Numbered from the stretch's first letter, positions 2,953 through 29,700 are shown. The stretch: DNA of 64,000 nucleotides from Candidatus Omnitrophota bacterium (GCA_028865345.1 JAGWKL010000004.1:79422-143421), one strand, 5' to 3'. Notes: a model not told the origin generated them from the sequence alone. A program made the numbers and translations.

Positions 2953-3846
2953 TCAGCCGAGGCCGGAAAGCAATTCTTGATTGGTTGGAAATTGCTGCAG
3001 TTTTGCCACCAGAGCCTGGGCCGCTTCAACGGCCCCCATCCCGGCCAGAGCCCGGCGGAAGCTGTTGACCAGGGGCAGCTCACCGGCCCCCAGCAACAAC
3101 TCCTGTTTGCGCGTGGCGCTTTTGGCAATGTCAATGGCCGGAAAAATACGGTGATTGGCGATCTCGCGTGAAAGAACGATTTCCATGTTCCCCGTGCCCT
3201 TGAATTCCTCGAAAATGACCTGGTCCATGCGGCTGCCGGTCTCGATCAAAACCGTCGCCAGGATGGACAACGACCCTCCGTTTTCGATCTTGCGGGCGGA
3301 GCCGAAAATGCGGCGCGGCACCTCCAAGGCGCGCGCATCCACGCCGCCGGAAATGGTGCGGCCGCTGGAGCGCGTCTGCGCATTGTGCACGCGGGCCAGC
3401 CTCGTCAAAGAATCGATGACGATCATCACGTCCGCGCCTGCCGCCGCCTCAACAAAGGCCCGGCGCATCAATTGATCCGCTATTTCAATGTGATGTTCCT
3501 GGGCTTGATCGATGGATGAATAGTGGATTTCACCGGGTATGGTCCTCTTAAAATCCGTCACCTCTTCGGGCCTCTCATCGATAAGCAGGCAATAAAGTTT
3601 TATCCGGGGAGTGCCCCGGGCCACGGCCTGGCAGATGTGTTTCAGGAAGGTGGTTTTACCCGAACCCGGCGGCGCCACGATGAGCCCGCGCTGCCCCATG
3701 CCGATGGGACAGATCAGGTCCATGGCGCGCATGGTCAACTCCCGGCTGCCGTCTTCCAGGCGTATGCGCGGCGAAGGGTCGATGGGGGTACCGGACAAAA
3801 ATTTCTTTTCAGCTTCAGATCGCAAAGAGTTATAAGGCTTCATCAT
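2953..3846 (-). CDS. Rho-like RecA-fold ATPase: Rho termination factor C-terminal domain only, no N-terminal RNA-binding domain
   Basis: Rho-specific motifs are present: PIGMGQRGLIVAPPGSGKT (Walker A), LLIDERPEEV, DSLTRLARVHN, FPAIDIAKSATRKQELL. The ORF is 297 aa and aligns to E. coli Rho from about residue 120 onward. An in-frame TAA lies 2 codons upstream of the Met, and only about 140 nt separates it from the next gene. Confidence 0.75.
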   Translation of the reverse strand: MMKPYNSLRSEAEKKFLSGTPIDPSPRIRLEDGSRELTMRAMDLICPIGMGQRGLIVAPPGSGKTTFLKHICQAVARGTPRIKLYCLLIDERPEEVTDFKRTIPGEIHYSSIDQAQEHHIEIADQLMRRAFVEAAAGADVMIVIDSLTRLARVHNAQTRSSGRTISGGVDARALEVPRRIFGSARKIENGGSLSILATVLIETGSRMDQVIFEEFKGTGNMEIVLSREIANHRIFPAIDIAKSATRKQELLLGAGELPLVNSFRRALAGMGAVEAAQALVAKLQQFPTNQELLSGLG

Positions 3847-3864
3847 GAACCTTTATACCGTAAC

Positions 3865-3890
3865 AGCCGTCCTCGAAGGGCGGCTTTTTC
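3865..3890 (+). terminator. intrinsic-terminator-like hairpin (8-bp GC-rich stem, 5-nt loop, U-tract) on the + strand
   Basis: agccgtcc-tcgaa-gggcggct followed by ttttctatttt. No + strand gene ends here; the element lies in the leader just upstream of the minus-strand rho-like gene. Confidence 0.4.
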
Positions 3891-3995
3891 TATTTTATCC
3901 TCAACTGAATTGATTTAAAAAGCATTTCTCATTAATAAATCGATACTGAAGAAAGCTCCGCCACATACGGGGCTGGATGACTTTAGAAGCTGTCA

Positions 3996-4805
3996 TTATT
4001 CTGATGTTTGGGTAACAACTGCCGTCACATCTTTTTTTGTAAGGGCAAGATACATGACGCACACAAAAATAGAAGTCAAGAAAATCGCGCTGGTCACGAC
4101 CGTGCCCAAACCTAAGCCACCGTCACTGCGCGACTGTGAAAGATAGTCGCCGATGGAAGCCCCCAGGGGACGCGTCAAAATGTAGGCAAGCCAGAAAGCC
4201 AAGACCGCATTAGAACTCATGCGCTTATGTTCAGCGCCCAAATAAGCCTTAAAACCAAAGTGAACAACGGTTACAAATGCGATCAACGCGGCAAATATAA
4301 ACACCGATGTAAGATATCCCAAGTTAAATTTCTCAGCCGAGAGGTCGCCTGCCGCTGTACCAAGAGCGAATGTGAAAAGGATGGCAAGCCAGTAAAAAGC
4401 TTCCCGCCTTATGGTCACAATACTGTGCATGGATAATGTCCTCTCGATGGCAAACCAAACAGCAAAAGTAACCGCTAAAATAATGCTAAATACGATGGTG
4501 CTTGTCTCGAGAGGTACACCGAGCCTGTCCGTCAGGTTATCGGTTATTAATGTGCCGACGACGCTGATAAGCACCACCGCAAGCCAGTAAATCGACGGGA
4601 CATACCGCCTTGCCCTGAACTGAAAAAACAGCACAGCGATAAGCAACACGCTCATAATATAGCTTGTATTGATCAGTCCGAAATGCAGTGTCTCGTTGAG
4701 GTAATCGGCGGCAGTCTCCCCTACGGTCGTACACAAAATTTTAATGATCCAGAAATAAATCGTGACTTCAGGCACTTTATTGAGCATTTTTCGTCCATGA
4801 CTCAC
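3996..4805 (-). CDS. polytopic membrane protein with internal sequence duplication (uncharacterized membrane-anchored protein family)
   Basis: 269 aa with about 8 TM segments. Repeated motifs TVGETAADYLNETL, GTAAGDLSAEKFNLGYL and RPLGASIGDYLSQ. Its start overlaps the stop of the upstream RND::OMF gene by 4 nt. Confidence 0.5.
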   Translation of the reverse strand: MSHGRKMLNKVPEVTIYFWIIKILCTTVGETAADYLNETLHFGLINTSYIMSVLLIAVLFFQFRARRYVPSIYWLAVVLISVVGTLITDNLTDRLGVPLETSTIVFSIILAVTFAVWFAIERTLSMHSIVTIRREAFYWLAILFTFALGTAAGDLSAEKFNLGYLTSVFIFAALIAFVTVVHFGFKAYLGAEHKRMSSNAVLAFWLAYILTRPLGASIGDYLSQSRSDGGLGLGTVVTSAIFLTSIFVCVMYLALTKKDVTAVVTQTSE

Positions 4806-7800
4806 CCCGACACCTCCGTACTTGACTGTTTATAATGGTTCCAACCGCCTCCCAAAGCCTTGATCAGCTGTATTGTCCAAATAAACTTGGCATTTTTAAT
4901 CTCCGAGTACTTTAATTCCGCTTCCAAAGCCAAACGTTGGGCTTCCAAAACCCCCAAATAATTAATGACCCCTTGTTGGTAACTCTTGTTTGAAACCGCT
5001 AAATCTCCCTTGGCGGCCTCCATGATCCGCCCCTCTAAATCCTGTTGTTGATTATTTAAATGGATCTTCACCAGGGCGTCTTCGACTTCATGAAACGCAT
5101 CCAGGACCTTTTGCCGGTAATTGGCCACGGCCTGATCATATTTGGCCAAAACGCCGTTATAAGCGGATTTATAAACCTGATAATTCAGCGGAAAAGTTAT
5201 GTCCGGGCCGAACGAAGAAAACCTACTCCTCCAATCAAACAAAGAACGTAACTTGACGCTGGCGGTCCCGACTGAGCCAAGCAAGGTAACGACGGGAAAA
5301 AACGAAGCCTTGGCTTCACCGATCATGGCATTGGCCGCGGCCATCTGCCTTTCCGCCTCGGCGATGTCCGGACGGCGTTCCAAAAGCCCGGAAGGCATGC
5401 CCGGCGGTATAAACGGGGGCGAGGCGGTCAATGGACCGACGGAGAGGTCAAAATCAACCGGCGGTTTTCCGCATAAAATGGCCAGCGCATTTAAAAGTTC
5501 ATTTTCTTTCGAAACAACATCAATGACCGCCAATTGCGCCGACTTAAAGCCAATCGTCTGGCGCCTGACATCAAAAGATTTGATAATACCGGCCTTATAC
5601 TGCTCTTCCGTAATGGTCATCCCCTTTTTATCGACTTGTACGATTTTCTTCAGCAGGTTTTCTTCGTTCTTCAATTCCCTCAACAGGAAATAATCCCTGG
5701 CCACCTCGCTTGTCAGCGCCAATAAAACGGATTGAAAATCAGCTTCACTGGCTTGGGCCTGGTCTTGGGCCGCTTCTATAGATCGCCTGACCCTGCCCCA
5801 GAGGTCCAACTCATAACTGAACTCCAAAGGGATCGAATAAAAACCTTCGATATTATTAGCGCGCCCGAAGAATTTATTCTGGATGGTATCCAGGTTAGTA
5901 TAGCCGGGATCGAGTTCCAGATACGGAACAAGATTTGCTTGACTTAAACCCGCCGCGGCACGGGCCTGATTCACAGATTCAAAAGCCGCCTTTAAACCCT
6001 GGTTATGGAGCTTGGCCTGGTCCTCAAGATGGTCCAGTACGGGATCATGAAAAATCTTCCACCAAGGCCCTTTGGGCAAGGTGTCCTGGGGATTGGCTTT
6101 TTTCCAGGAAGCATCCGTGGTTTTCCATTTAACCGGCATTGTGACCTGTGGCCGATGGTATTTGGGGCCCATCAAGCAGCCATTGGCGGTTATCAAGACA
6201 CAGCATACAAGAACCAAGATTTTGGCGCCCGGTATTGCAGGCGGGGAAAGTTTTGATTTAAACCGGCCCAGTAAAATATACAAGGTAGGAATAACAAAAA
6301 GGGTCAGGAAGGTGCTGGTGATCATGCCGCCTATAACCGCAATCCCCAAAGGCCTGCGGCCCGCCCCGCCCATGCCGAAACCAATGGCAATCGGCATGGC
6401 CCCGGCGATGGTCGCCGTTACGGTCATCATGATCGGACGAAAGCGGATCAGGGCCGATCTATAGATGGCTTCCGGCACATTTTTACCTTTGGCGACCAAT
6501 TGATTCGCAAACTCCACCAATAAAATACCGTTTTTGGTGACCAGCCCCACCAGTAAAATCAGCCCGATCTCGCTGAACAAATTAATGCTCATGCCCGGAA
6601 TGCCGTAAAAATTAAACACCCATAAAAATCCAAAAGCACCGAAAACGGCCAAAGGCACGGTCAGAATAATGATAAAAGGGTCAATAAGATTCTCAAATTG
6701 CGAAGCCAGAACCATATAGACGATGAGGAGAGCAAAGCACAGGGTGAACATCATTTCCCGGTTGGACTGGATCAATTCCCTGGACTCCCCTGCCCACTCA
6801 TAACGGAAATCCGGCGGCAGATCTTTTTTAATCAACTGCTGCGCTTTCTGGATGGCCGTGCCCAAGGTCACATTCAAAGGAGAGCCCTCAATAATAGCAG
6901 ACCGCATACGGTTATAATGGGTGATGACGTTAGGGCCTGCCGTGATTTTATAGTTGGTCACATTGGACAGCGGGATCAGCTGCCCCTGATCATTCGGGAC
7001 ATAGATGCGGTCCAAGTCCATGGGGCTCAGCCGGTCGCGCTTTTCCAGCTGGGCAATGACCTTATACTGCCTGCCGGAGAGATTGACGGTACTTACGTCC
7101 ATGCCGCCAAAAAGCACCTGCAACGTACGGGCAATGGTTTCAGCGGAAACCCCTAAAGCGGCGGCGCGCTCGCGGTTGATCGTCAGATCTACCTGGGGTT
7201 TATTCAACTGAAATTCAGACCTCACGTCTTCCAGAAATCCTGCGGCCGACAATTGTCCGCTGATGCGCTGTGCATAGGTGTTGAGCCTGTTTAAATCCTC
7301 GTTTTCCAGGACCAATTGAAACGGCTGGGCCAGCGAATCTCCGATGGCCTGGGGGGTAAGGGGAAAAACGATCGCCCCCTCGATGTCCTGATATAATTTT
7401 AACGCCAGGCCTTTTTTACCCAGCAAGATGTCCCCGAGGTTGCGCTTGCGTTGCTCCTTCAGACGGACATAAGAAAGCCCCTGGGAACAGACGCCCGGCC
7501 CGTCGATGGGCAAAGCCACCGCGGTAAAATACCCTTGCACCTCGGGAATTTTTCTGATCATGCCTTCCATTTTCTTGACCATACGGTCGGTGTATGCGCA
7601 ACTCGAACCTTCCGGAGCAACGGCAATGCACAGAAACCTTCCCTTGTCCTCATCAGGCAAGAATTCATGCTCAAGGTTGAAATACAAAAGGACCGATAAA
7701 GCGATCACGCCCAACCCGATGACGATAATGAACAGCGGCCTCTTCAATGACCGGCGCAGCAAATCTTTATAAGAGGTTCTCAATCTGAAATATATCCGGT

Positions 7801-9313
7801 CAAACCAGGCATTGATCCAATGGCGGGAAGATTTCTCTCCTGACCTCAGAAAATGGGCCGAGAGCATGGGCGAAAGCGTCAAGGCCACAAATCCGGAAAT
7901 CAATACCGAACATGCAATCACGACGGCAAACTCAATAAACACCATTCCAGTCGTGCTGGTTTGGAACGCCAAAGGCAAAAAGATCACCGCCAGGACAAGG
8001 GTCGTGGAGATCACCGCAAACCCGATCTCCTTCATACCCAACACGGCTGCCCCCAAAGGTTTCATGCCTTGTTGAACATGCCGGTAAATGTTTTCCAAAA
8101 CAATGATGGAGTCATCCACCACCAGGCCTATGGCCAATACAAAGGCCAGCATCGTCACAATATTAATCGAATAGCCCATCCAATAAAGAATGGCAAAGGT
8201 AGCGATCAAACAAACGGGGATGGCGATCGAAGGAATGACCGTCAAACGCACGTTGTTCAAAAAGAAAAAAATGGTCAAAACCACCAGGACGATGGACAGC
8301 CCCAACGTGACCCAGACCTCATTGATGGAGCTCTCGACATAGGTGGACTCGTCATAGGGCACAGAAACCTTCACCCCCGCAGGCAGCCGCTTCTTCAAGC
8401 GCCGCAGCTCCTTTTTAACGGCTTCGGCCACCGCAATGGTATTGGCTTTGGACTGTTTGACGATCCCGAGGCCCACACAGGGCTTGGAATTATAGCGTGC
8501 AATGGAATGTTCATCTTCAACGCCGACCTGAGCATGCCCCACATCGCGCAAATAAACGGCCTTACCGCCTGCCTGTTTGACAACCAGATCATTGTATTGC
8601 CGGGGTGTTTTCAGCTGCCCCTGCGTCTGGATGGAAAACTCCCTCTGCGTCCCCTGAATATTGCCGCTGGGAAGTTCGACATTCTGGCTCCTTAAGGCCT
8701 CTTCGATGTCTGAAATTGTAACTCCCTTGGCCGCCATTTCCCCGGAATCCAACCAAAGGCGGATGGCAAAACGTTTCTCGCCGCCGAAGACAACAGCGCT
8801 GACACCGGGCAGGGATTCCAGAGGATCTTTTAACGTCTTCTCGGCAATGGAGGTCAGATCAAGGGTGGAAAATGAATCACTGTACAATGCGATCCATAAC
8901 ATGGGCTGCACATCCGCCCCTTGTTTTTCGATGGTCGGCCCCTGAATTTTTTCAGGCAAATCCCCACGGACCGAGGCCACACGGTCACGCACATCCTGAG
9001 CTGCTGTTTCGATGTTGCGCGAGGGTTCAAATTCAACCGTGATGATGCTGACCTGCTGGCGGTTTTGGCTGCTGATTTTACGGATACCTTCTATCGAATT
9101 GAGAGCCTCTTCGAGCGGATCCGTAATTTGGGTCTCGATGATCCCGGCGCCGGCACCCGGGTATACGGTCGTGACCTTGATAACCGTGGGAGTGACGTCG
9201 GGGAATTCACGGACGGCAAGCCGCGGCAGGTAAACCAACCCCATGAGGATCAGTCCCAAGCTTGCCATCGCGCACAGGACCGGGCGTCTTATGCTGATTT
9301 CCGATAATTTCAT
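4802..9313 (-). CDS. in-frame fusion: RND inner-membrane permease (AcrB/MdtB-like, about 1030 aa) plus NodT-family outer-membrane-factor lipoprotein (about 470 aa)
   Basis: The N-terminal about 1030 aa is a complete 12-TM RND permease ending ...IPTLYILLGRFKSK. Without a stop it continues into LSPPAIPGAKILVLVCCVLITANGC, a lipoprotein-type signal with lipobox Cys at about nt 6176-6178. The remainder is a full NodT/OMF domain ending ...LIKALGGGWNHYKQ. I translated the junction codon by codon and found no stop or ATG between the modules. Confidence 0.8.
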   Translation of the reverse strand: MKLSEISIRRPVLCAMASLGLILMGLVYLPRLAVREFPDVTPTVIKVTTVYPGAGAGIIETQITDPLEEALNSIEGIRKISSQNRQQVSIITVEFEPSRNIETAAQDVRDRVASVRGDLPEKIQGPTIEKQGADVQPMLWIALYSDSFSTLDLTSIAEKTLKDPLESLPGVSAVVFGGEKRFAIRLWLDSGEMAAKGVTISDIEEALRSQNVELPSGNIQGTQREFSIQTQGQLKTPRQYNDLVVKQAGGKAVYLRDVGHAQVGVEDEHSIARYNSKPCVGLGIVKQSKANTIAVAEAVKKELRRLKKRLPAGVKVSVPYDESTYVESSINEVWVTLGLSIVLVVLTIFFFLNNVRLTVIPSIAIPVCLIATFAILYWMGYSINIVTMLAFVLAIGLVVDDSIIVLENIYRHVQQGMKPLGAAVLGMKEIGFAVISTTLVLAVIFLPLAFQTSTTGMVFIEFAVVIACSVLISGFVALTLSPMLSAHFLRSGEKSSRHWINAWFDRIYFRLRTSYKDLLRRSLKRPLFIIVIGLGVIALSVLLYFNLEHEFLPDEDKGRFLCIAVAPEGSSCAYTDRMVKKMEGMIRKIPEVQGYFTAVALPIDGPGVCSQGLSYVRLKEQRKRNLGDILLGKKGLALKLYQDIEGAIVFPLTPQAIGDSLAQPFQLVLENEDLNRLNTYAQRISGQLSAAGFLEDVRSEFQLNKPQVDLTINRERAAALGVSAETIARTLQVLFGGMDVSTVNLSGRQYKVIAQLEKRDRLSPMDLDRIYVPNDQGQLIPLSNVTNYKITAGPNVITHYNRMRSAIIEGSPLNVTLGTAIQKAQQLIKKDLPPDFRYEWAGESRELIQSNREMMFTLCFALLIVYMVLASQFENLIDPFIIILTVPLAVFGAFGFLWVFNFYGIPGMSINLFSEIGLILLVGLVTKNGILLVEFANQLVAKGKNVPEAIYRSALIRFRPIMMTVTATIAGAMPIAIGFGMGGAGRRPLGIAVIGGMITSTFLTLFVIPTLYILLGRFKSKLSPPAIPGAKILVLVCCVLITANGCLMGPKYHRPQVTMPVKWKTTDASWKKANPQDTLPKGPWWKIFHDPVLDHLEDQAKLHNQGLKAAFESVNQARAAAGLSQANLVPYLELDPGYTNLDTIQNKFFGRANNIEGFYSIPLEFSYELDLWGRVRRSIEAAQDQAQASEADFQSVLLALTSEVARDYFLLRELKNEENLLKKIVQVDKKGMTITEEQYKAGIIKSFDVRRQTIGFKSAQLAVIDVVSKENELLNALAILCGKPPVDFDLSVGPLTASPPFIPPGMPSGLLERRPDIAEAERQMAAANAMIGEAKASFFPVVTLLGSVGTASVKLRSLFDWRSRFSSFGPDITFPLNYQVYKSAYNGVLAKYDQAVANYRQKVLDAFHEVEDALVKIHLNNQQQDLEGRIMEAAKGDLAVSNKSYQQGVINYLGVLEAQRLALEAELKYSEIKNAKFIWTIQLIKALGGGWNHYKQSSTEVSG

Positions 9314-16667: not shown

Positions 16668-17336
16668 TCAGCCTTTGATCATATAGCCGCGGCCTCTAAC
16701 GGTACCGATAAGGGCCGTTTTATGGCCTTCGTCAATTTTCCGCCGCAATTCATGGATATGGACGTCGATGGTATTGGTGGTGGTGCTGAAATGGGTGTCC
16801 CATACGCATTCCGATATGTCCGTTCTTGTAACCACCTGACCGGCATAACGCATCAGATACTCAAGAAGCTGAAATTCCTTTGCCGTCAAAGGGATCTCCT
16901 TGCCTGCTCTTGTCACTTTATGGCCGGGCAAATCCAGTATAAGGTCCGCCACCTGAAATTTGGTGGACACAAGGGTTTCTTTCCGCCGGAGCAACGCGCG
17001 GATCCTTGCCAGAAATTCTTTAAAGGCAAATGGCTTTGTCAGGTAATCCTCAGCCCCGGCATCCAGCCCTTCGACTTTGTCCTCTACAAAATCTTTGGCC
17101 GTAAGCATGAGGATGGGGGTCATGATCTTATCTTTCCGCAAATTCTTACAAACAGAGATGCCGTCCATTTTAGGCAGCATGATATCCAGGACGATCAGGT
17201 CATATTTTTCCGTCCCCGCCAGGAAATAACCCTCTTCTCCGTCATAGGCCACATCAACGGCGTACCCCGCTTCCTGGAGGCCCTGTTTGATAAAACCGGC
17301 TATATGTTTTTCGTCTTCGACGACTAAAATCCGCAT
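16668..17336 (-). CDS. OmpR-family response regulator (CusR/CzcR-like)
   Basis: Receiver domain with phosphoacceptor D in LIVLDIMLP, plus a winged-helix output domain (GTVRGRGYMI). Confidence 0.9.
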   Translation of the reverse strand: MRILVVEDEKHIAGFIKQGLQEAGYAVDVAYDGEEGYFLAGTEKYDLIVLDIMLPKMDGISVCKNLRKDKIMTPILMLTAKDFVEDKVEGLDAGAEDYLTKPFAFKEFLARIRALLRRKETLVSTKFQVADLILDLPGHKVTRAGKEIPLTAKEFQLLEYLMRYAGQVVTRTDISECVWDTHFSTTTNTIDVHIHELRRKIDEGHKTALIGTVRGRGYMIKG

Positions 17337-18022
17337 TAAAGTAAATTGAAACGATAGCCGATGCCCGGCTCATTGATGATGCGCCGGGGGGTTGAGGGGC
17401 TGTCTTCGATCTTCTGGCGCAGGTGGTTTAAATAGACCCGGACGGAATTGGCCTTCTCTTCGTTTTCCGTCGCCCAGACCTCCCTTAAGATCTGGCGCAC
17501 CGTCAGGATGCGGCCCGCGTTCTTGATGAGCGCGGACAACAGCCCGTATTCGATGGAAGTCAGCTTGAGTGCCTGGCCGCAAAGCCAGACGCGGCGGGTA
17601 TTGAATTCCACCCGCAATCCCGCGTTGTCAAAAACTTGGTCGACAATGCCGGAGGTGGTCTTGCGCCGCAGCACCGCCGCAAGCCTTGCGGTCAGCTCGG
17701 AGGCGGAAAACGGCTTGGTGACATAATCATCCGCCCCGCTTTCCAGGGCTTTGACCTTGATCTCTTCCTGCCCACGCACCGAGACGATGATGACGGCCAC
17801 GTCGCTGAATTCCCTGATGCGCCGCAGCACCTCCAGCCCCTCCATATCCGGCAGGCCCATATCCAATAAAACGGCCTGAGGTTTTTTATAAACAACCGCC
17901 CCCAGGCCCTCTTGGCCGTTTTGAGTATGGACCGCTTCATACCCGGCGTGCGTGAGGATAATGCCCAACATTTTTTGGATTTGAGGCTCATCATCAATGA
18001 CAAGTACTGTGCCTTTGGACAT
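17336..18022 (-). CDS. kdpE: KdpE response regulator (OmpR family)
   Basis: Receiver plus winged-helix domains. Lies immediately downstream of kdpD with a 1-nt gap. C-terminal GIGYRF motif. Confidence 0.85.
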   Translation of the reverse strand: MSKGTVLVIDDEPQIQKMLGIILTHAGYEAVHTQNGQEGLGAVVYKKPQAVLLDMGLPDMEGLEVLRRIREFSDVAVIIVSVRGQEEIKVKALESGADDYVTKPFSASELTARLAAVLRRKTTSGIVDQVFDNAGLRVEFNTRRVWLCGQALKLTSIEYGLLSALIKNAGRILTVRQILREVWATENEEKANSVRVYLNHLRQKIEDSPSTPRRIINEPGIGYRFNLL

Positions 18023-18023
18023 C

Positions 18024-20666
18024 CTATTCTTTTTCCGCCATGGGCAGGGTGATGGTCACCATAAAACCTTTCGGGGACAAATTCTCCGCTTCCACCTCGC
18101 CCTCATTCAATTGCACGAACCGGCGGGCGATGGACAACCCCAGTCCCAGGCCGCCTTTCCTGGTCTTGGCCCCCCGATAAAATTTATCGAAAATCTTGGC
18201 CAGGGTCTGTTTGGAAATGCCTTCCCCCTGGTCAATGACGCTGATCCTGATCTTTTGGTCGATCACACGGACATGGATGTCGATGTCCAGGCCCTCGGGG
18301 CCGTGCACCAGGGCATTATGGACGATATTTTTCAACGCCTGTGTGATCATATAGAAATCCGCATTCACATACACAGGACCCTGCGGACAATCTACATGGA
18401 TGCGCTTTTCATCCTTGGACGTCCCCACCTGCTTAAGGGCGTGGGCCACGATGTCCTTGACTTCGCACCAGGCAAAATTGGGACTTAGGTTGCCGACATC
18501 CAGCTTGGTCAGATCCAGCACCGCATCCACGCCGCTGGTCAGGCGAAGGCAGGCCAGCCGGCATTCATCCAAAAGCTCCATGGCATCCTTGGGCCACTGA
18601 TGAAACAAGATCAGGGCGTCCAGATAACCGGAAATGATCGTCAGCGGCGTCTTGAGCTCATGGGACAAATTATCAAGAAGCGCGCTTTGCAGATTTTGCG
18701 TGTCTTCCTTCATCTTGGCTTCACGGGAGATCTTCAGCAGCTGGTCCTTTTCCAGCATCACCGTCATAAGCGCCGTGAATGATTCCAATAATGTCCTCTG
18801 GGCCAAATCCAAAGGCCTTTCCTTTAAAAGCTTGATGACCACAATGGCCCTCACCTGGCCCGATGACATTAAAGGCAGGTACATCAAGGGCTGCTGGGGC
18901 AGCGTGTCCGAAAAACGGCCCGCGGCCTTTTTATTGGCCACCACCCACTGGACCAAACCTTTTTGGTTGGGTGTCATATCAATAGGGTCCCCCAACGGAT
19001 TGGCGAACAGCGGCTGCTCGCTCTCGTCGACCATAAAGACGCTGCTATGGCACTGCAGCAACAGGTTGATTTGGGCTGTCGCCAGGCGCATGGCCTGGGC
19101 GATATCGGTGCTGAGCGCCAGGGCCCTGGTCAACTCATACAGGGATTCGGAACGTTGGCGCTGCTTCTGCTCTATTTCCTTTTGGCGGCGCAGTTTCGAG
19201 GTGACAAATCCCATCATCAAGGCTGTTATGAAAAACATGCCGAGTACGCCGATGTCATAGGTGGTCCTCAGATGAAGCGCAAACTTAGGAGGAATGAACA
19301 AATAATCCCAGGCAAAGGCGCTTAAAGCGGCCAGCATAAAGGCCGCGCTGCGGCCCAGGAAAGAACCGCTCAAGACAACGGTCAGCAAATATAAAAGCCC
19401 CAGCACCTCGTAGCCCGTCCAGGGGGCCAGCAGCATGTTCACGATGGTCGCAATGACAAACATCAGGAAACTCAAGCCATATTCACGGGGTCTTGGCCTC
19501 ATCAAGAATTCATTGGGTTTGGAAGGAAAGTTCTTTTCCGCGGCCGACATGCGCACCATATGCACGTCTATCTGTCCGCTTAAAGCCACCAGGCGGTCCG
19601 CCACCGTCGGGATCCCCAAAAAACGCTGCCATCTGGTCTCCGACGATTTTCCGAAAATAATTTGGGTCACGTTTTCCTTATTGGCCACATCCACGATCAC
19701 CTGGGCCAGGTCATCCCCGACCCGGTGGATGATCTCCGCCCCCAGCTGCCGGGCCAGGGTCAAATTCTTCATCAGGCGTTCTTTATGCTCTTCGGTAAGC
19801 GGCGCGGAACCTTCCACGTGCAGGGCGATCCAGGAGGCATCGAGCATCCCTGCCCAGCGGCGGGTCATGCGGATCAATGATTCCGAAAAAGGCGTAATAC
19901 CTACAGCCACCAGAATGCGTTCCCCGCTTTTAGAAGGGCCTGAAAGGCCCTTGGCCAGCATCAGCGAGCGCAGGTTGCGGTTGACATGGGCCGTGGTCAG
20001 GCGGAGAGCCATTTCCCTTAAGGCCGTGAGGTTTTCCGTCTTAAAAAAGTTGACCGCGGCCGCCTGAGCCTGGTCAGGGACATACACCTTGCCTTCGGCC
20101 AGGCGCTGGTGCAAGGCCTGAGGTGAAAGGTCGACCAGCGTGATTTCGGAAGCTTCGTCCAGGATGGTGTCGGGAACGGTCTCACCGACGGCAATGCGGG
20201 TGACCGCCAGGATGTCCTCCCGGCGGCTGTCCACATGCTGCACGTTCAGGGTGGTGAACACATCGATGTCCGCGGCCAGGACCTCCAAAACGTCCTGATA
20301 ACGTTTGGGATGACGGCTGCCCGGGGCATTGGTATGGGCAAGCTCATCGACGAGAACCAACTGCGGATGGCGCTTAAGGATCTCATCGATGTCCATCTCT
20401 TCGATGGTAATGCCCCGATAATTGACTTTCTTTAAAGGGATTTGCTCCAGGCCCTGCAGGAGCGCCCGGGTCTCGGGCCGGCCATGGGTCATGACAACGC
20501 CTACCAGCACCCGGAAACCCTCCGCCTGGCGCTGGCGCGCCTCCTGGAGCATGGCGTAGGTCTTGCCGACGCCGGGGCACATGCCGAAAAAAATCTTGAG
20601 TTTGCCGTGGTGGTCTTCTTCGGCTTTAAATCTCGCTAACAGCGCGTCCGGATCAGGGCGTTCCAT
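18024..20666 (-). CDS. kdpD: KdpD osmosensitive K+ channel sensor histidine kinase
   Basis: N-terminal KdpD domain with Walker A (GMCPGVGKTYAM), USP-like domain, 4-TM block, GAF-like region, HisKA (LSHELKTPLT) and HATPase. Confidence 0.9.
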   Translation of the reverse strand: MERPDPDALLARFKAEEDHHGKLKIFFGMCPGVGKTYAMLQEARQRQAEGFRVLVGVVMTHGRPETRALLQGLEQIPLKKVNYRGITIEEMDIDEILKRHPQLVLVDELAHTNAPGSRHPKRYQDVLEVLAADIDVFTTLNVQHVDSRREDILAVTRIAVGETVPDTILDEASEITLVDLSPQALHQRLAEGKVYVPDQAQAAAVNFFKTENLTALREMALRLTTAHVNRNLRSLMLAKGLSGPSKSGERILVAVGITPFSESLIRMTRRWAGMLDASWIALHVEGSAPLTEEHKERLMKNLTLARQLGAEIIHRVGDDLAQVIVDVANKENVTQIIFGKSSETRWQRFLGIPTVADRLVALSGQIDVHMVRMSAAEKNFPSKPNEFLMRPRPREYGLSFLMFVIATIVNMLLAPWTGYEVLGLLYLLTVVLSGSFLGRSAAFMLAALSAFAWDYLFIPPKFALHLRTTYDIGVLGMFFITALMMGFVTSKLRRQKEIEQKQRQRSESLYELTRALALSTDIAQAMRLATAQINLLLQCHSSVFMVDESEQPLFANPLGDPIDMTPNQKGLVQWVVANKKAAGRFSDTLPQQPLMYLPLMSSGQVRAIVVIKLLKERPLDLAQRTLLESFTALMTVMLEKDQLLKISREAKMKEDTQNLQSALLDNLSHELKTPLTIISGYLDALILFHQWPKDAMELLDECRLACLRLTSGVDAVLDLTKLDVGNLSPNFAWCEVKDIVAHALKQVGTSKDEKRIHVDCPQGPVYVNADFYMITQALKNIVHNALVHGPEGLDIDIHVRVIDQKIRISVIDQGEGISKQTLAKIFDKFYRGAKTRKGGLGLGLSIARRFVQLNEGEVEAENLSPKGFMVTITLPMAEKE

Positions 20667-20708: not shown

Positions 20709-23700
20709 TTAACGGTTTCCAAACATCAAATGGAAGGCATCGTTGACGGTAAGGCTGGGGGTGAAACGGACGATGTGGAAATTAAACCCTTGAAACCCCT
20801 CAGACATCTGCACCGCCTCCCTTCTCCCGGAAAGACCGGCAGTGGAAAAACGATTGATGAATTGAGGCTGAAAATCAAGGTCAATACCCCCGCTGCGTTT
20901 GGCGGCGGAAGCGTTCATGGCGGCATCGACCACCCTTTGGGCCAGATGCCTCGCCCTGTCGGAAGCGGAAGCAAAAACCACCGTATTCCTCTCCGGCAAA
21001 TAAACCATGTTTTTCAAATTGTGGCGGGACAAGGAGACCTCCCCAATTACTGAATAAACGCGCGTTCTTTCATCCACCGATGCGTTTCTAATAGCATTTA
21101 AATTTCTTTCAAAACTCTCTTTATATCCATTACCGTTCCCATTACCATTGCCATGTCCATTATCGGCACCACTGCGTATTTGGGCCTGGATATAATCCAT
21201 GTATTCTTTTAAAAGAATGTTGGGGTCCTCAAAATTTTGGGCCATGACCCTGGGAATAATGATATCCGGAATAAATCTTAACCCGCCGGCATTGACCAAT
21301 TCCTCGGCCAATACTGTTTGCAATTGGACCTCCTCAGGGGACATGGTCATAAGGCGGGTCAAGCCCATCATTTGCTGGGCCGATTCATTGTCCAGGTCCA
21401 AGCCTTTGGCCCTGATGATATTGATCGTGGGTGAAAATCGTTTTCTCGCATGCTCCCTAAGATCGAGGTTTTCATACATTCTGGCAACCGTCGTCAGCCC
21501 TTCGTTTAAATCAGAAATCACCCAAGCCCGAGATGGCCTGGAGAGATCGTGCAAATCCCTTATGTTCGTCCAATGGGTGCCGAAGGTGATCCCTGAACCA
21601 TCGGCATGTTGGACAGGAGGCCCCACATAAGCATCCTGTGCGTAACCCAGGACAAGCCCTCCTTTAGGCGTCGTTTTTGCCGCCGCGTATAAATTGTAAA
21701 TGCCTAATTGGATACGGGGATCATCGGGAGGGATGTTGCCCTCAACGAAAAGAAAGAGTTTATGGTTGTCCTTGCCCGATTTGGTTTCTCTCAAGGCCTT
21801 AAAAAAAGTGTCCCCATCCTGCGTCCCCCACCCGATGATTTGGGAGTTCCTGACGGTTTCCCTGAGAGCCTCGATGTACTTAGGGTCATGGTTTTCCACC
21901 AAAAGCACAACGGGATCATCACCCTCATGGGATTCGGCTTCTTCAACGGCCCGCCTGATAATCTGTTCTTCATTGTTGGCTTGCGAGACATTTTCAACGA
22001 CATTTTTCTTAAATACAGGCCATTGGTGAGGCCCTGCCGTCAATCCGACGGCTTCGGCCATTTTTTCACGGAGCCTGAGCAGCACCTCTTTCATGTTTTT
22101 GTTGTCTATCAACCTCTTATTGGCCAGGGTGGGCCCCAAATAGTTGGCAAAGGTGATCGCCACGCTGGCCAGAAGACCGAATATTTCAAGGACATTGAAA
22201 CGGCCGAATGTCAAAAATGGCAGCCGCCCATAACCGAAATAGCTAAAGGCGATCTTTAATGCCAAAAACCCGTCTACAAATGTAAAAATATGCCGGCTGT
22301 ACCAACTGCGCTTACGCGAATTCTTGCTTGAAGCTGCGTACCCGTAACTGCCGAATCTCTTACTCTCCTTTTTGACTTCCAGCCATCGTTTCTTGCTCTC
22401 GGTGATGGTAGCGTTTATTTCATTTTCCTTATAGAGTCCGGGGACAATAAAATTGCCTGTCTCCATCAGGTCCCTTAGGTCAGCCTCCAATTTATTTTCA
22501 GGCTTCTTGACCAGGGACTCAAAGCCCAAAAGGGCGGTGGGATAATTGAAGGTCTCCTCCAGTTCGCCTTTCTGAAAATGTTCGTTGTTACGGAGATTAA
22601 GATTGACACGGCCCTGGAGCCAATCCAGAAATTTCTGGACGTAGATCATTTTTAAATTCATGCGCTCGCTGGTTTCCCAAGAGGCATGTCGTTGGCCTTC
22701 CGTGGCCCTGTTCATACGGTCAGACACCATTTTGGAAGTCCTGTTGGCCAGTCTCACAAAGTAAGAAAAACCTTTCTGATAGGCCTCGTTCTGGGCGCCT
22801 TTACGGCTTTTGTTATCGACAAGGTCCGGGGTATATTTCATACGGACAATGATGGCATCGGCAATAACGGCCATAAACACCTGGTCGTTCAGGAGTTTTT
22901 CTATCGGATAACGGGGATCGCTGTCCCATAACTGTAAAATTTCTTCCCATTTTTTCAAAAGTGCCGGCACACTGACCTCATTAGCAATAACCCCCTCTCC
23001 CTTGCCGTTATTATTAAGGAACTCATCCTCCAGGATGCGCATGAGTTTATCCAGGCTTGCAAACTTTCTGTTTTTCCAGTCCCAGAATTTCGGAGAAAGA
23101 AGGTAGTAAAGCCCCACGCAGATAACGAGAAGGCTTGCCCCGACACCTGTATTCCAGGCCCATTGCCACCAGTGCCCCTGGACGATCTGCTGGTCATTCT
23201 CATAGATGGATTTTATATAATCGTTACGCAGCTTCAGGACCGCTTCCACAACTTCTTTATCTGTACCGGAGTTTTTCATCTGAGTTAAATACTTCTCCAG
23301 CTCTTGCGGGTCGTTCAGAGACTCGATTTTTTGTGCCAATCGATCCAAAGCATCCGAAAACCGGACAGAATGGACCGGCATCCCTGCGGAATAAGAATCC
23401 TTTTGGGCCATCTGCGTATTGATCTGGATGGCGCGTACGGCCCACTTGGTGGCGATCAACTTGATCTGGGCGTCCCGGCTCGCGGCTCCTGCCGCGGGAG
23501 GGTTCTGCATGGACAGTTCTATAAAGGAATATGTATCCAAATACGCCTCAGAAAACGACAGGTTCTGCGTCCGTCCGCCCATTTTATAGAGCGCCCGTCG
23601 AAAAACCCCCATGGCCGCCGGTGTTTTAAGATTTTGAGCATCTTGTTTGACGGTATCTATATTCTGACGGGCCTCAATGGCCCTAAGCATGAGCTCATCA

Positions 23701-26700
23701 TTGGAATTGATGTAGTCTTGCATCACCAATAAACGGCCTTCAGCATCCCCCATCAATCGGTCCAGGACCAAATTTAAATCATCCGCATTTTTCAAAACAT
23801 ACGGATGGGGAAGGATGCGGGCCAGTTCGGATTTTGTCGCTGTTTTAAGATACTCTCCTTGCCGGGAGACCGTCATGGTTGATAAATACGCCAGCGTGTC
23901 TTGAGGGTCCCGGGGAAGCGCGCCGATAGCGGAAACACCCGCCCTTTCCTGCTCATTGACCTGGTTTTGATCGATCAAATTTTGCGCCTGCCGGCGGGCT
24001 TCTGCCAACAAATCGCCCCTCAAAAGGCCCATATGTTTACGCCAGCCGGGGGAATTCAAAAATAGACGCAATTGGTCCGGTAATACGCTGATACGTCCCA
24101 AAGCCTCCGTATTGGAATCAACGAACAAAGAGTACGTATTGACATTTTGATATTCTCCCGGCTGAAAATGTTCATTTATCCTCTCTAAAACAATCTTTCT
24201 GACCAGGACATCCATGAACAGATCTTTCATGGCCTGGGCCTGCTTAGGGTCGGCAAAGTAAAGATCCATTTCATTATAAAGGCGGGCCAACTCATCCGTA
24301 CGCCAATATCGGCCCATCAATAGGTTGTCTTGCCCCAACCCATCAGGGTCCTTGGCAATAAAGGCCAGTAAGATTTTCTGTGCCAAAGCCCGTTGATTGG
24401 GATAAACACCGTCGGCATCGAAACTGGAGGGATACAAAGCATCCAAAATTCCGGGGTTATCGGTAAAGATGTCCCCGATGGACTGATAAGCCCAATTGAC
24501 GGCTTGGCCATTGCCCTTTTGCTGCGCCGTTTGGATGAAGTTGACTAAAAAGCGCAGGCTGCGCCATGGGTTGCTCCCGTCTAAAAACAGAAAAATCCGC
24601 TCTCTGACGTCTGCGGGCGCCGTCAAGGCGGCTGCCCCCAGTTTTTCAACGTCTTTTGCTGTCCCCTGATAGCCGGACAAAAGGTCATCGATCCCGGGCT
24701 CCCTGTTAAAAGGATTGCTGTCATAAACATTCATCGTTGAATTGGGCCCGGGCAGGGTCGATCTGGCCTTCCAGGCATTAAAATCCCTATTGGGATTTGA
24801 AAGCTGCTGGGCGTGAAGGGGCATGACGCCGATGCTGACGGCCATGCTGAAAGCCAGAATTAATTTCTGTAAAAAACCCGCAAGCTGGGCCCTGTCAGCG
24901 GCCATGGCCTGGTTTGCGCTGTCTTGGATCAGGGATTGGTCCGGGCCCAGGACGCCCAATTTTTGCAAATCATCCTGGGCCTGGAGATATTGACCTTTAA
25001 GTTGTATTATCTTCACGGCCCACTTATTCATGGCTCCGCGCTCCGTGGCCCAATCCTGAGGCGCGTAAAGAGTGCCTGTAAAGCCGGCTTTCAACTCCCA
25101 CCATTTTAGGGCATTTTGATAAGCTTCCCGGGCTTGTTGGATTTGACTGCTTAAATCTCTAAGAGCGCCGATCTTGACGGCCACTTCCCCTCTTAAATTA
25201 TTTTCCATCAACTCCAATTCTGCCGTCTTCTTTTGCAATTCGAGGGCAAGGATCTTTTGATCTATTTTCTTCTTTCCATCATATAAGGGGATGCTCAACC
25301 CTTCTGCGCCGTTCTCTCCGGGATTCATTTCAGAAGCCCGCCATGTTTCGCCGCCGCCGAAGGCGGGTTCCGTAAAAGAACTGCTGATGGCGCTGCCGCT
25401 GTAAACCCCTGTGGCATTGGCCTGCCAGCCTTCGATCTTTTTCAATTTTAACTGCTGGCGGATCTTGGCTATTTCCGTCTGGGCCCGTTGGATTTGAGGA
25501 TTAGCCGTTAAAAGTTTTTCGATAAAAGCATTTTCCTGCTCTTGGCTTGGGGCGGGAAATTCCGCCTGCCATGGGATGTCCATGGCAAAGCCTGCATGAA
25601 GGTCTTGCCGGCCGGTTAAGGTGTTGAGTTGTATGGTCAGTTCGTCATTGCCCTGAACAGCTTCTGATCTTGCTTCCTTAGCTTCCGCAATATTATTGTC
25701 AAAGGCCATGAGCTGCTCTTGTGTACCCACGCCGGCTTGCATGCTCTGGACAATGGCTTTTCTCCCCATTTCCAAATCTTTGATATATTGATCGTAAAGC
25801 GCCGCGATTTGCTGTTGAGTCCCCAGATCAATACCGATGTCCTTGGCATGTTCAGTCTGTTCAAGCACAGCAGCTTGATACTCGCGCAGCACGATTTCCG
25901 TCTGTATTTTGGCATATTCTATCTGTTTGGCCTTTTGGTGGGTGACCAATTCCGCGATCTTTAGAAAATAGGGAAAGACCAGCTTGGCTGCCGCGCCGTA
26001 AGCATTGCCGGAAGCCAGATCAATGGCAACATCCGGTATATTGGCATCGACCCCGCCGCCGATATATGTTTTGCCGCCGGATGAATAAACATTAAAATCC
26101 AGACCGATGTATTTGCTGTTGGGATATTTCTCGGCCAATTGGTTTTGGAGGTATGAAATCCTTTGGGTAACAGCCGTCAGTTTAAAGTCCCTGACCTTTT
26201 GCCCTATGGCAGTAAGGTTCACCGAGGGCCCCTGTACCGGAAATGACGTCAGGGGCGGATTAATGTTGATAACGGCCCGAGGGTTTAAAACCGGCCGGGA
26301 AAGCTTATCCGCATGAATTTTGGGCGGAGGCGGCGGAGCTGCCCCTGAAAAGACCGGCGTAGAATTCTCCTGCGTCCATACCTTTGCCGCTATCTGCTGA
26401 TTTGTTTTATCCAGCAAGCTGACATTGACTCCCATGCCTATGCGTAAAACATGCCGGGGGTCAAGGACCTTGATTTCAACCGACTTTTTGTTCAATTGGA
26501 TGTCCGGACTGAAAGCATCAACAACATTGGTCACCCGTCCTACAAGCCGATAACCCCCTATTTGAGTTGTGACCAGCACATAATCGCCCCGATGAACAGG
26601 CCCATCCAAAAGGACCGCGTTCGAGGGATCATTAAAATCCCCCAGAAAAACGGTGCCGGGGCTGTACTCCAAGAGTTTCTCGCCGCTTTTAAACGTTCCT

Positions 26701-29700
26701 GATTGATGTTCCCATGATGAGACAATAACGCCGTCCCTCGGAGCTTTTATGACTAAATTATTCAGAATCGTCCTGAGCCTTGCAACTTCAGATTTCCATT
26801 TAATGTCTTCGGCCTGAAGCTTATCGATCTGTACCGGAGCGATCGTCCCGCCGGAAGCAGGCGCTTCGTTTCTAAGCCGGTCTTCAACCGCATGAACTTG
26901 ATCGACTGCTTCCTGATATTGAGCAAGATATGGTTTAGGGTCCACCCGGGCCACGATTTGGCCGGCCTCGACCTTGTCCCCTTCACGGACCAAAAAATTT
27001 ACCGGCCCGTCGGCCGTGGCATCGATCGGATAGGTTTCAATGTTTCTGACCAGCTCACGCGTGCTTCCGGAGGCAACAATGGTATGAAGCAGCCTGGAGG
27101 ACCCTCCATCCGCAGAATAGACTTTAAGAGACAACTGCACTGTCTGGCCCTGTCTTATCGGCGATGAAGGGGTGACAACCAAGGTCAAATGTGCCGTCCG
27201 CGGATCCACCGTGGGCAGCCAATTAATGCCTGTGATGCTCTTGACCGGTTTACCGTCGATGGTCAGGTCAAGATCATTGTTATTGGCGCTGATGGGAAGG
27301 TCCACTTCAAAGCGGACCCTGTCTTCGTCAAAATAACTGGCCAACGCGGCCCCCTGCTCGACAGGAGTTCCGCTGTCGACTTGAAAATCCCTGATCACAA
27401 GTTTATGGGGAGCTTTTACCTTCCCCAACTCACGCTCGGCTAAAGCCTTGGTCAATTCCTGCTGCAGGCTTTGGACATTTTCCCGGGCCTTCTGCAGTTC
27501 ATTGACCGGAGCGGCCTGGGACTGCTCCAGAGAAGCCTCCATTTCTTCGGCAGCATGCAATTGCGCCCGAAGGGTTGTAATACGGCTTTCCAACTGCAGA
27601 TTCCTTATGATGAGTATTGTTTCTCCTTCTTTATATGTCGTCTTGGAAGCATCCAGGATCTCCGCAAAACCGCTCAGTTTGGCCGTTAAATTGTCCTCAA
27701 CAGAAGAGGCCTGCACTTTTTTCTGCAACACATAAAACTTTTTACCATAATGCCAAGGGATTTGATGGGTTTTTACGCGGGATGGGACGACATGACTCAT
27801 TGGTGCTGCTGCGGGAACGGGCTTGGACGCCGGCGGGGACGCCGGAATTTCTTCATGCGCCTGCTGCGTTTGATAGGGTTTCTCAATCTCAACCTGCGCG
27901 GGTTTCAATGGCACGTTGACCGGTTCGATCCGTTCCTGTGTTTGAATATTGGCTTGTGTAGCTGCAGGGGCAACGGGCGTTGGATGTAAATTTAAATTCG
28001 TATTCTTCTCAGCCGGCAGCGGAGACACCTCTGCCACAGGCGTTGATCCGGTATCGGTTCGAATTTGACCGTTCATATCATCAAGAAGGCGGTGAATATC
28101 TTTTAAATTCCGTTCCAAATCATAGAGACTTTGAGTATGGGCAGCTTGAATCTGAACATCATGGTTGTCAAGGGCGCCCCTGGCTGGTCTGACGGTCCAG
28201 GTCTTGACAAAATCCTGCGCTGCTTGTTCGAGATCACCCAGGACACGGACAACATCATCCCTCTGTCCCTCCGGAAGGCTTCTGACAAAACCCGGGTCTT
28301 TCAACAGGCCGTCCAGGGCGTCGGCCTCTGCCCTGAATCGCGGGACAACGGGATGGGCCAGCGCTCCAAAAATATGGGAGCCTTCCGTATCATCGTCGAA
28401 TGTTGATTGCAGATCCTGGATCGTCCGGCTGAGTCTCTGAAAATTATTGCCGATGTTTTTATGGTCTACGTTGGATAAATCCTGCATGTAGCTCCTGACC
28501 TTGGGGCCGGCGTTCTCAGGGCCTGGGATATTAAAACTTGTGCTGGGCTGGATAACATTGATATTATGCGATGGGATTTGGCTTTCAACAGACGGCTGTA
28601 GCTGTGCCACAATTCCACGGGCTCCCCAAAGCTGCCCCCTATAACCGCTGTCCAGCAGGATTTGCCCTAAGGTATCATGCTGTTGGACTGCCACATGCAG
28701 GGTGCCATTAGAATTGTGGGTAATTACCGCGGCTTGGGCAACCCCACCTGCCCCCAACAATGCCAGGGCGACCGTAAGGACAAAACTCCTTATCGATGAA
28801 CGGCTGACCGTCATGCTGGGATCCATGCCGATGGGCGAAAGCGCCACATGGGCCATGGCATAGTCGGAACTCTGGGCCAAATCAGGCGCGATCACTTCGG
28901 GATTCATGACCCGTACGGTCATGGCCCAATTTTTGAAACCGGAAAAATTACAGCCGCCGGAAAAATATTTTCGGGGAACAATTTTCTGGGAAACAGGGTC
29001 CTCGTCTTCGCGGATATAGTTGTACGCGCCTTTCTTGAACAAACGCAGGTATTCCCTATAGATCTTTTCCTTGGCCTGCAAAGGCACGTCATCGACACCG
29101 GCGGTTTTTCTTTTATTGATATAAATGTCCGACAAAACATTTCTCCTTAAAGCGCGTTTATACCAGTCCGCCAGGATCAGTGAATAGAACATCTGGCGCA
29201 GCGGCGCGAAATTCTTGCCTGTATTGACCTCTTTTTCCAATTCCGGCAGTATGAGCCTTTTGGTGATCATGGAGGTAAAGCTATGGGTCGGGCGGGCGTT
29301 GATGCCGGCATGAGACCGGTTTTTTTTCAGGGCCAAATAATCCTCTTCCATCATGACCTTAAGGTGCGTTTGACCGACCACGGCACTGTTGCCCATGTCG
29401 TAGACAATGGCCTTGTCTGGAACTATCCAGACCTTATTGAAGGTGTTTATGGGAAGATCCGTGGTGCCGTATATTTCAGCGGCTTTTTTGTAAACTTCAG
29501 CCCAGAATTTTCTGCCAAGACCGGTCTCGGGATAGGTGAGCGAGGACGTCAATTGTTTAAGAAGCTTGTCCTGTTCCAGAAGGATGTTGCCAGCGTCCGT
29601 AACGGACAAATCCGCAGGGACAATCCGTCCTTTTTCGTAAGGCGATAAATTGACCCAAAGGTCTCCTTCCGGGATCGTCAGAAAGGTCAAAAAATACTTG

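Follow-up and report, generated by a model that had tools for sequence, protein, structure and literature searches.

The recognition of rut sites by Rho is the task of its N-terminal primary binding site (PBS). The 64,000-nt stretch of Candidatus Omnitrophota DNA analyzed here (“the window”) encodes a Rho-like protein in which this site appeared to be missing, raising the question of whether the gene is a working Rho at all and, if so, what a Rho motor might do without the domain that recognizes rut. According to the original prediction the protein is of the Rho type and neither an F1 nor a type III secretion ATPase, it starts at the equivalent of E. coli Rho residue ~120, and the whole N-terminal domain (NTD), helix bundle and OB fold together, is missing. 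The gene and its 5' surroundings are as follows:

2953..3846, minus strand: coding sequence for the NTD-less Rho (297 aa and a stop codon), with the connector and RecA-type motor domain only
3847..3995, minus strand: upstream intergenic region of 149 nt, with a promoter-like site and a hairpin inside
3996-4805, minus strand: DUF347 membrane protein gene (Pfam)

The Pfam scan of the 297-aa protein returned ATP-synt_ab alone; neither the Rho_N helix bundle (PF07498; no match at E<=1) nor the OB-fold primary site Rho_RNA_bind (PF07497) was matched in it, which is the pattern that had been expected of an HMM scan. The NCBIfam Rho model PRK09376 (NF006886) scores the protein at 375.6 bits against a cutoff of 315, over model positions 128-411 of 413, and TIGR00767 at 358 bits, under its cutoff of 509.45, whereas the best score from the FliI, type III secretion and F1 ATPase models is 77.5 bits against cutoffs of 380-750; the assignment to the Rho type stands. 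Alignments with PDB Rho chains begin at residue ~131-136 and extend to the C terminus, at E values of about 1e-81 to 1e-85, BLAST gives 48% identity across residues 133-413 of E. coli Rho, and the match to E. coli Rho comprises residues about 118-413 only, close to the predicted point of entry. Nothing significant was found in the 64-kb window by tblastn with the E. coli Rho NTD, and an HMM built from 161 Rho NTDs had no match at E<=1 in the six frames of the window and of 48 family loci (~0.8 Mb); with Pfam, tblastn and the NTD HMM all giving no match, the loss of both N-terminal modules is borne out. The AlphaFold2 monomer model, calculated from an alignment of 73 family sequences, has a pLDDT of 85.7, with low values at residues 156-170 (the Q-loop) as expected for a flexible loop, and Foldseek superposes it on E. 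coli Rho chains with a TM score of 0.91 and an rmsd of 1.9 Å over 284 columns.

The start of the gene is well delimited. On the minus strand the bases are gta TAA agg ttc ATG ATG, which puts a stop codon two codons 5' of the start, just as had been noticed before, and this start is supported by the M(R/K)PYNS motif which opens the N termini of relatives and of the window protein alike. The DUF347 gene upstream is intact (Pfam E 1.7e-64) and ends 149 nt short of the Rho-like start; the spacer had been put at ~140 nt and judged too small to house an NTD, and with the neighboring gene complete this judgement is confirmed. Within the spacer, the promoter-like site at 3919-3892 on the minus strand is weakly supported, site counts being no higher than shuffle expectation, and a 9-pair hairpin at 3865-3885 would form a 5'-UTR stem-loop on the gene's strand and is terminator-like when read on the plus strand. 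A leader RNA or riboswitch 5' of the gene was considered and rejected (no Rfam match, fold z-score 0.23).

Could the missing domain be an accident of sequencing or of decay? The identical protein is present in two other NCBI assemblies (GCA_028870875.1 and GCA_028866185.1) and in the independent Logan assembly of SRR32006849; at least 120 Omnitrophota-type clusters at 77-100% identity (the best 120 database clusters) are all 276-358 aa in length; and dN/dS against relatives is 0.05-0.11, with synonymous sites close to saturation. With an undamaged reading frame that is under purifying selection, the gene is in our view neither a pseudogene nor an assembly artefact. A frameshift or assembly error hiding an NTD, which the original prediction had named as a threat to its reading, is contradicted by the recurrence of the same protein in other assemblies and by the lack of an NTD in six frames; nor does the protein belong to a clade of pseudogenes, given relatives of the same length, the low dN/dS and the intact catalytic residues.

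The motifs that make Rho a motor, and those that line its RNA channel, can be followed along the gene:

3802..3846, minus strand: N-terminal tail, residues 1-15, MMKPYNSLRSEAEKK, net charge +2; pLDDT <50 at residues 1-6
3754..3801, minus strand: connector FLSGTPIDPSPRIRLE, about E. coli Rho 131-146, the first stretch alignable to canonical Rho
3649..3675, minus strand: Walker A/P-loop APPGSGKTT, by alignment with E. coli Rho
3559..3588, minus strand: LLIDERPEEV, which holds the catalytic Glu (E. coli E211) and R212 and does not vary within the family
3391..3420, minus strand: Walker B and arginine switch VIDSLTRLAR (E. coli D265, R269), by alignment
3343..3384, minus strand: Q-loop NAQTRSSGRTISGG, belonging to the secondary RNA-binding site; positions 282-288 are canonical, and 278-279 carry additional basic residues
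3223..3243, minus strand: R-loop ETGSRMD, which also belongs to the secondary RNA-binding site; its Arg326 is the canonical majority state
3103..3120, minus strand: SATRKQ, site of the arginine finger (E. coli R366), by alignment

The Walker A Lys and Thr, E211, R212, D265, R269, R353 and R366 are invariant in 120/120 relatives. Alignment of the Q-loop and R-loop, proposed earlier as a check, found both conserved: the window sequences G-R-T-I-S-G-G and T-G-S-R-M-D are the majority state of 161 canonical Rho proteins, and the family patterns are G-R-T-x-S-G-G and T-G-S-R-M-D. R283, S286 and R326 were considered as changes specific to the family and rejected on the same comparison with the 161 canonical sequences; K283, T286 and K326 are states specific to E. 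coli. What does set the family apart is position 181 in the P-loop, Gly in 37/38 family members and Lys/Arg in 161/161 canonical Rho proteins, giving the family P-loop PPG(S/C)GKT, together with five further positions (C192, L246, V273, H274 and R298 in E. coli numbering) and a Q-loop in which positions 278-279 are mostly basic. The change of K/R181 to Gly, unique to the family, could alter ATPase behavior.

Relatives were searched in one genome per GTDB species. Among the matches listed, close relatives at 68-82% identity are found in Omnitrophota MAGs, and, unexpectedly, many at 63-68% identity in Gammaproteobacteria, whose hosts include Marinobacter, Vreelandella/Halomonas, Marinomonas, Gilvimarinus, Endozoicomonas, Microbulbifer, Colwellia and Cycloclasticus; the Vreelandella/Halomonas copy lies on a complete chromosome (NZ_CP085232.1). 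(A few of the MAGs carry the depositor labels Planctomycetia or “uncultured bacterium”.) All listed loci at or above 63% identity have an ORF of ~310-340 aa, with few open codons 5' of it and no NTD. A search from the Vreelandella copy added at least 120 further clusters of 311-354 aa, several of them on complete genomes, in hosts such as Halomonas, Marinomonas, Neptunomonas, Neptuniibacter, Amphritea, Nitrincola and Teredinibacter, and no NTD Pfam domain was found in the at least 120 Omnitrophota-type and at least 120 gammaproteobacterial clusters. RefSeq and UniRef name the gammaproteobacterial copies plain “transcription termination factor Rho”, and the Omnitrophota-type clusters, where named, are “Rho” from Candidatus Omnitrophica MAGs.

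In a midpoint-rooted neighbor-joining tree of the C-terminal domain (CTD; 215 sequences aligned) the family is monophyletic, the Omnitrophota and the Gammaproteobacteria form reciprocally monophyletic sister branches, and the window protein is placed within the former. The next outgroups are also without an OB fold: a 301-aa protein from Sericytochromatia and proteins of 364-407 aa, the named one of which is from an Elusimicrobia MAG; in two of 406-407 aa (L044, L045) the N terminus is a low-complexity stretch of ~115 aa rich in G, Q and R. One branch further out lies a 362-aa Calditrichota protein that has kept the OB part only. ATPase-only Rho proteins found elsewhere in the tree, at the Planctomycetota loci L064, L071 and L077 and also in P0125 and P0247, suggest independent losses. 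We delimited this clade of Omnitrophota and marine Gammaproteobacteria by a length of 290-335 aa, a start at the connector, a basic tail, PPG(S/C)GKT, the five signature residues and monophyly, and the window protein has every one of these features. It is no isolated oddity, being one member of a large, monophyletic, cross-phylum family: a coherent clade of motor-only Rho proteins, uncharacterised and labelled as ordinary Rho in the databases.

With 1.8 billion representatives searched, the representative of the family itself scored 399 bits and the best full-length Rho ~300-310, which argues that the family is no recent offshoot of the canonical Rho of any phylum. The full-length Rho nearest to the family (P0126) comes from Bacillota (Desulfotomaculales), and no canonical Omnitrophota Rho was identified by the names of 20 representative full-length clusters. 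When the flanks of ~125 other Rho loci were compared by BLAST with the Omnitrophota loci, almost all matches were of Rho to Rho, and a metagenome scan with the universal motifs DERPEEVT and IFEEFKGT returned almost only canonical Rho.

In place of the 117-residue NTD the window protein has its 15-residue tail, a short version of the basic, low-complexity tail of 15-45 aa seen across the family. Omnitrophota-type tails have a median of 27 aa and a net charge of +4, with 15% R and 12.5% P, and are rich in R, P, S, H and N; gammaproteobacterial tails have a median of 34 aa and a conserved opening, MTRKTLSLKVKR. The Elusimicrobia-type relatives have an RGG-like region of ~115 aa, rich in G, Q and R, which includes RRRRRRNRGGGGGG, and more distant OB-less Rho proteins open with runs such as GRRRRGKRKGRNRNRN or RRQRGRGDR. 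At 15 aa and net +2 the window tail is among the shortest in the family, and this weakens, for the window copy, the idea that the tail replaces the PBS.

The gene was originally described as lying next to membrane proteins, at the distal end of a long array on the minus strand. A kdp locus also lies on the minus strand of the window:

32783-34528, minus strand: kdpA
30698-32779, minus strand: kdpB
30093-30680, minus strand: kdpC
18024-20666, minus strand: kdpD
17336-18022, minus strand: kdpE

In the closest relatives kdpFABC-kdpDE is followed by an unknown 336-351-aa protein and/or DUF347 and then by the short rho, 3' of which there is often an ABC-F ATPase and then a 66-aa CSD gene; in one relative only 3 bp separate kdpE from the short rho. 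The window retains this ancestral kdpDE...DUF347-rho order, broken by insertions: kdpC and kdpD are separated by a 3088-aa ORF without a Pfam match, and between kdpE and DUF347 come a histidine kinase gene and an RND efflux cluster. The window has neither the ABC-F nor the CSD neighbor. Because insertions interrupt the ancestral order and ABC-F and CSD are missing here, we regard the membrane-protein surroundings as a local feature; the earlier description is accurate for the window, but it does not extend to the family, since the inserted RND cluster is window-specific. GC3 of the Rho-like gene is 0.718 versus a window mean of 0.616 (z = 1.4, no outlier), and on this value together with the ancestral kdp...DUF347-rho order a recent horizontal acquisition was rejected.

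For the family as a whole, short-Rho loci of at least 10 kb were compared with 73 control loci at other Rho genes by Fisher's test. ABC-F ATPases (two kinds, one Uup-like) are found in 10/17 Omnitrophota loci versus 1/73 controls (p = 3e-8), CSD genes in 7/17 versus 0/73 (p = 3e-6) and DEAD-box helicases in 5/22 gammaproteobacterial loci versus 1/73 (p = 0.002), all three p-values ignoring kinship; the CspA-like cold-shock protein beside the short rho is 100% identical in five loci. In several loci the immediate neighbors include an RlmI-type methyltransferase (PF10672) and a pseudouridine synthase of the RsuA/RluF type with an S4 domain. The theme common to the neighbors of relatives is RNA and ribosome metabolism together with stress, and not secretion or defence.

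With the determinants of the CTD intact and strongly constrained, the best-supported reading is a ring-shaped RNA translocase that works without rut recognition. We would give about an even chance to the protein being a functional “motor-only” Rho, a proposal drawn from sequence: the short Rho is assumed to assemble, without an NTD, into a homohexameric ring, which would act as an ATP-driven 5'-to-3' RNA translocase/helicase and would load independently of C-rich rut sites. Loading might proceed by either of two routes. Basic tails and the extra Q-loop charge could capture RNA electrostatically and non-specifically, or separate RNA-binding partners, for example a CspA-like OB protein, ABC-F factors or a DEAD-box helicase, might deliver it; the cold-shock neighbor would be a candidate partner, as its fold is of the OB/RNP class, like that of the missing domain. 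In the window the absence of ABC-F and CSD neighbors counts against this reading. Occupancy of the PBS promotes loading and ring closure in E. coli Rho, and a ring without a PBS may therefore load poorly by itself. The task of such a ring might be an accessory one in transcription termination or in the remodelling of RNA and R-loops, possibly linked to stress, as suggested by kdpDE upstream and by the adjoining cold-shock gene and ribosome-associated ATPases.

Among the alternatives, a role as modulator, in which the short protein would join full-length Rho in mixed hexamers whose lower number of primary sites per ring would tune or dampen Rho-dependent termination, seems to us rather unlikely. 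It draws on the hosts in the gammaproteobacterial branch, where canonical Rho is very probably present: in the survey of 2730 genomes by Moreira et al. (2024; PMC11347177) the species without functional Rho include no Pseudomonadota, and we infer that the two forms co-exist there, hence the word “paralog” for that branch. Hetero-hexamers are also raised in that survey for shorter second Rho copies, and the CTD, which bears the ring contacts, is well conserved (48% to E. coli Rho). Against this, identity to canonical Rho overall is only ~50%, the deep separate branch suggests a long independent evolution of the subunit interface, and no canonical rho was seen linked to the family in about 800 kb of its loci; further, a pure dampener has no need of invariant catalytic and RNA-channel residues, although an active subunit of a mixed ring would.

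It is unlikely, in our estimate, that the short protein is the sole Rho of Omnitrophota, their only rho having lost its NTD, with termination then depending on recruitment by RNA polymerase/NusG or on free cold-shock proteins. The family is indeed very widespread in Omnitrophota, with housekeeping-like conservation (68-100% identity), and its location 3' of kdpDE is syntenic across sub-clades, window included; no canonical Rho labelled Omnitrophota is among the 44 more distant Rho loci listed from the GTDB genomes (~34 with an NTD), which is weak evidence. However, the sister gammaproteobacterial genomes are expected to hold a canonical Rho, and this favors an accessory role for the family, and PVC-group bacteria are described as often having two rho genes. 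Slightly more doubtful is the fuller form of the idea, in which Omnitrophota would have no full-length Rho and the protein would be a sole “split Rho”, the OB function being supplied in trans by a CspA-like protein or replaced by RNA polymerase/NusG recruitment; if true, it would be a natural counter-example to the PBS as an integral part of Rho action.

Recruitment of a Rho-derived ATPase to a non-RNA function, such as FliI-like protein export or phage defence, is very improbable: the RecA/F1 fold is indeed common to FliI and the type III secretion ATPases, and there are membrane-protein neighbors in the window and a weak PADLOC match to mad8 (27.8 bits), but the Q-loop and R-loop, which are specific to Rho and contact RNA, do not vary, the recurrent neighbors are RNA and ribosome factors with no secretion genes, the membrane-protein neighbors come from the window-specific RND insertion, the PADLOC match spans the P-loop region only, and IMG/VR gave a single match, at a contig edge. 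An origin in phage or defence systems was rejected on these last two grounds. That the gene is what is left of a decaying full-length rho, or an assembly artefact of one, as its truncated architecture and GC3 above the window mean might suggest, is refuted to the point of a negligible chance by hundreds of relatives of matching length, the repeat assemblies, the low dN/dS, the intact catalytic residues, a GC3 z-score of just 1.4 and the lack of any NTD remnant in any frame by tblastn or the NTD HMM.

We return, then, to a motor-only Rho as the preferred reading. In the catch-up (tethered tracking) model the NTD of Rho anchors rut RNA, and in the stand-by model Rho is already bound to RNA polymerase; with the NTD central in current models, a conserved and catalytically intact Rho without one is a natural experiment on the motor ring alone. 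The family occurs in cultivable Halomonas, Marinomonas and Marinobacter besides the uncultured Omnitrophota. There is also a consequence for annotation, as the cutoff of PRK09376 lets CTD-only proteins take the name “transcription termination factor Rho” at NCBI, and surveys of Rho presence and absence that rely on such names would tally them as ordinary Rho. What is new here, as far as sequence can tell, is an OB-less clade in which the RNA-recognition domain of Rho appears to be replaced by a short basic tail; NTD-less Rho has no mention in a 2025 review, and a literature search for Omnitrophota Rho or for Rho paralogs without the primary binding site found nothing relevant.

How does the protein compare with known kinds of Rho? 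Moreira et al. (2024; PMC11347177) sort Rho into four types, and in that survey the short Rho of Type 4 (Group B) has lost the Rho_N bundle and kept the OB RNA-binding domain. The likeness to these Group B/Type 4 paralogs (D'Heygere, 2013; Moreira et al., 2024) as there described is that they too are shortened, are often second copies and have conserved catalytic residues, and a basic patch has likewise been proposed for them; the difference is that they retain the OB domain, whereas the window protein is without it and falls outside the group. The same holds for the NCBIfam model NF041509 (“paralog_Rho2, short form”, 360 aa), to which the window protein scores 326.1 bits versus a cutoff of 628, aligning to model positions 74-359 only and leaving positions 1-73, the OB region, uncovered; relatives and sister lineages score 259-375 bits, none of those tested reaching 628. 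By definition the protein fits the “Rho-like” bin of Moreira et al. (2024; PMC11347177), in which a single Rho domain is detected (421 species, Supplementary Table S3), and not their “functional Rho”, this bin being a mixed list; the gammaproteobacterial family members are probably among its 421 species. No clade definition, tail, context or function for the bin, and no mention of Halomonas, Marinomonas or Marinobacter, was found in the main text of that paper.

With canonical Rho (E. coli; PDB 1PV4, 3ICE, 5JJI; TIGR00767) the window protein has the connector and the RecA-type CTD in common at 48% identity, and the predicted fold superposes (TM 0.91, 1.9 Å); Walker A and B, E211, R212, R269, R353, R366, the Q-loop and the R-loop are all present. 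It differs in lacking canonical residues 1-117 (the Rho_N bundle and OB fold), with a 15-aa tail instead, and in having Gly for the canonical Lys/Arg at P-loop position 181. The tail itself recalls the intrinsically disordered region (IDR) of B. thetaiotaomicron Rho, the NID of M. tuberculosis Rho and the prion-like Rho of C. botulinum, in which low-complexity, basic or disordered N-terminal sequence takes part in RNA engagement or condensation. In the Bacteroides, M. tuberculosis and Clostridium botulinum proteins, however, the disordered stretch comes on top of an OB fold that is intact, whereas in the window protein the low-complexity tail is the sole remainder N-terminal to the motor.

Some Rho proteins related to the OB-less family, which is formed by the Omnitrophota and marine gammaproteobacterial branches, also lack the N-terminal domain (NTD). 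Two sister proteins of 406-407 aa come from Elusimicrobia-type MAGs:

L044, 619-1842: Rho-like sister protein
L045, 1567-2787: Rho-like sister protein

In both, the NTD is replaced by a G/Q/R-rich low-complexity region of ~115 aa, which includes the RGG-like RRRRRRNRGGGGGG and in which no Pfam domain was found. The closest outgroup of the family is P0124, an OB-less Rho-like protein of 301 aa from a Candidatus Sericytochromatia MAG. Sericytochromatia are non-photosynthetic relatives of Cyanobacteria, a phylum reported to lack a functional Rho. Because ATPase-only Rho proteins of 293-328 aa also branch separately from the family clade in the tree (L064, L071 and L077 (Planctomycetota); P0125 and P0247, both with Arg-rich tails, the former encoded on contigs of 4.4-4.9 Mb), the phylogeny suggests that the NTD was lost independently more than once.

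The rho-like protein and its C-terminal-domain-only relatives score 333-430 bits against NCBIfam NF006886 (PRK09376), above its curated cutoff of 315 bits, and RefSeq/GenBank therefore name such OB-less proteins “transcription termination factor Rho,” a label that can mislead surveys of Rho presence and absence.

Five short-rho loci carry a 66-aa CspA-like cold-shock gene downstream of short rho:

L004, 11420-11620: cold-shock gene
L005, 13295-13495: cold-shock gene
L007, 13093-13293: cold-shock gene
L170, 7071-7271: cold-shock gene
L171, 9152-9352: cold-shock gene

These five cold-shock proteins are 100% identical; the short Rho proteins of the same loci differ by 15-20%. At L010 and L011 a cold-shock domain gene lies directly upstream of short rho instead of downstream. 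An ABC-F gene with ~55% identity to the upstream ABC-F of Omnitrophota was found at a single control locus (1/73), where a canonical full-length rho follows ~3.3 kb downstream of it:

L069, 4011-5637: ABC-F gene, Fibrobacter MAG

Several other features belong to the window itself:

3865-3885: 9-pair GC-rich hairpin followed by TTTTTCTATTT
3892-3919: weak promoter-like site
4802-9313, minus strand: single RND-OEP fusion ORF, 1503 aa
9310-14665: separate MFP, second RND pump and separate OEP gene, adjoining the fusion
20709-29975, minus strand: 3088-aa ORF between kdpC and kdpD

The hairpin lies immediately 5' of the start of the rho-like gene. Together with TTTTTCTATTT it has the form of an intrinsic terminator when read on the plus strand, antisense to that gene; in the sense direction it would form a stem-loop in the 5' UTR, shortly after the promoter-like site. 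Site counts showed no excess over shuffle expectation.

The 1503-aa ORF joins an RND inner-membrane pump domain (ACR_tran/MMPL) to a TolC-like outer-membrane factor domain (OEP). As a rule these components reside in different membranes, and the ORF is an unusual fusion of the two. The kdpFABC-kdpDE cluster, unbroken in relatives, is split in the window by the inserted 3088-aa ORF, for which a Pfam search returned zero matches at E<=1e-5.

In the P-loop (window 3649-3675, minus strand), the position equivalent to E. coli K181, a residue of the bicyclomycin pocket, holds Gly in 37 of the 38 aligned family members; all 161 canonical Rho proteins have Lys or Arg there. This difference may alter ATPase kinetics or bicyclomycin sensitivity in the family.
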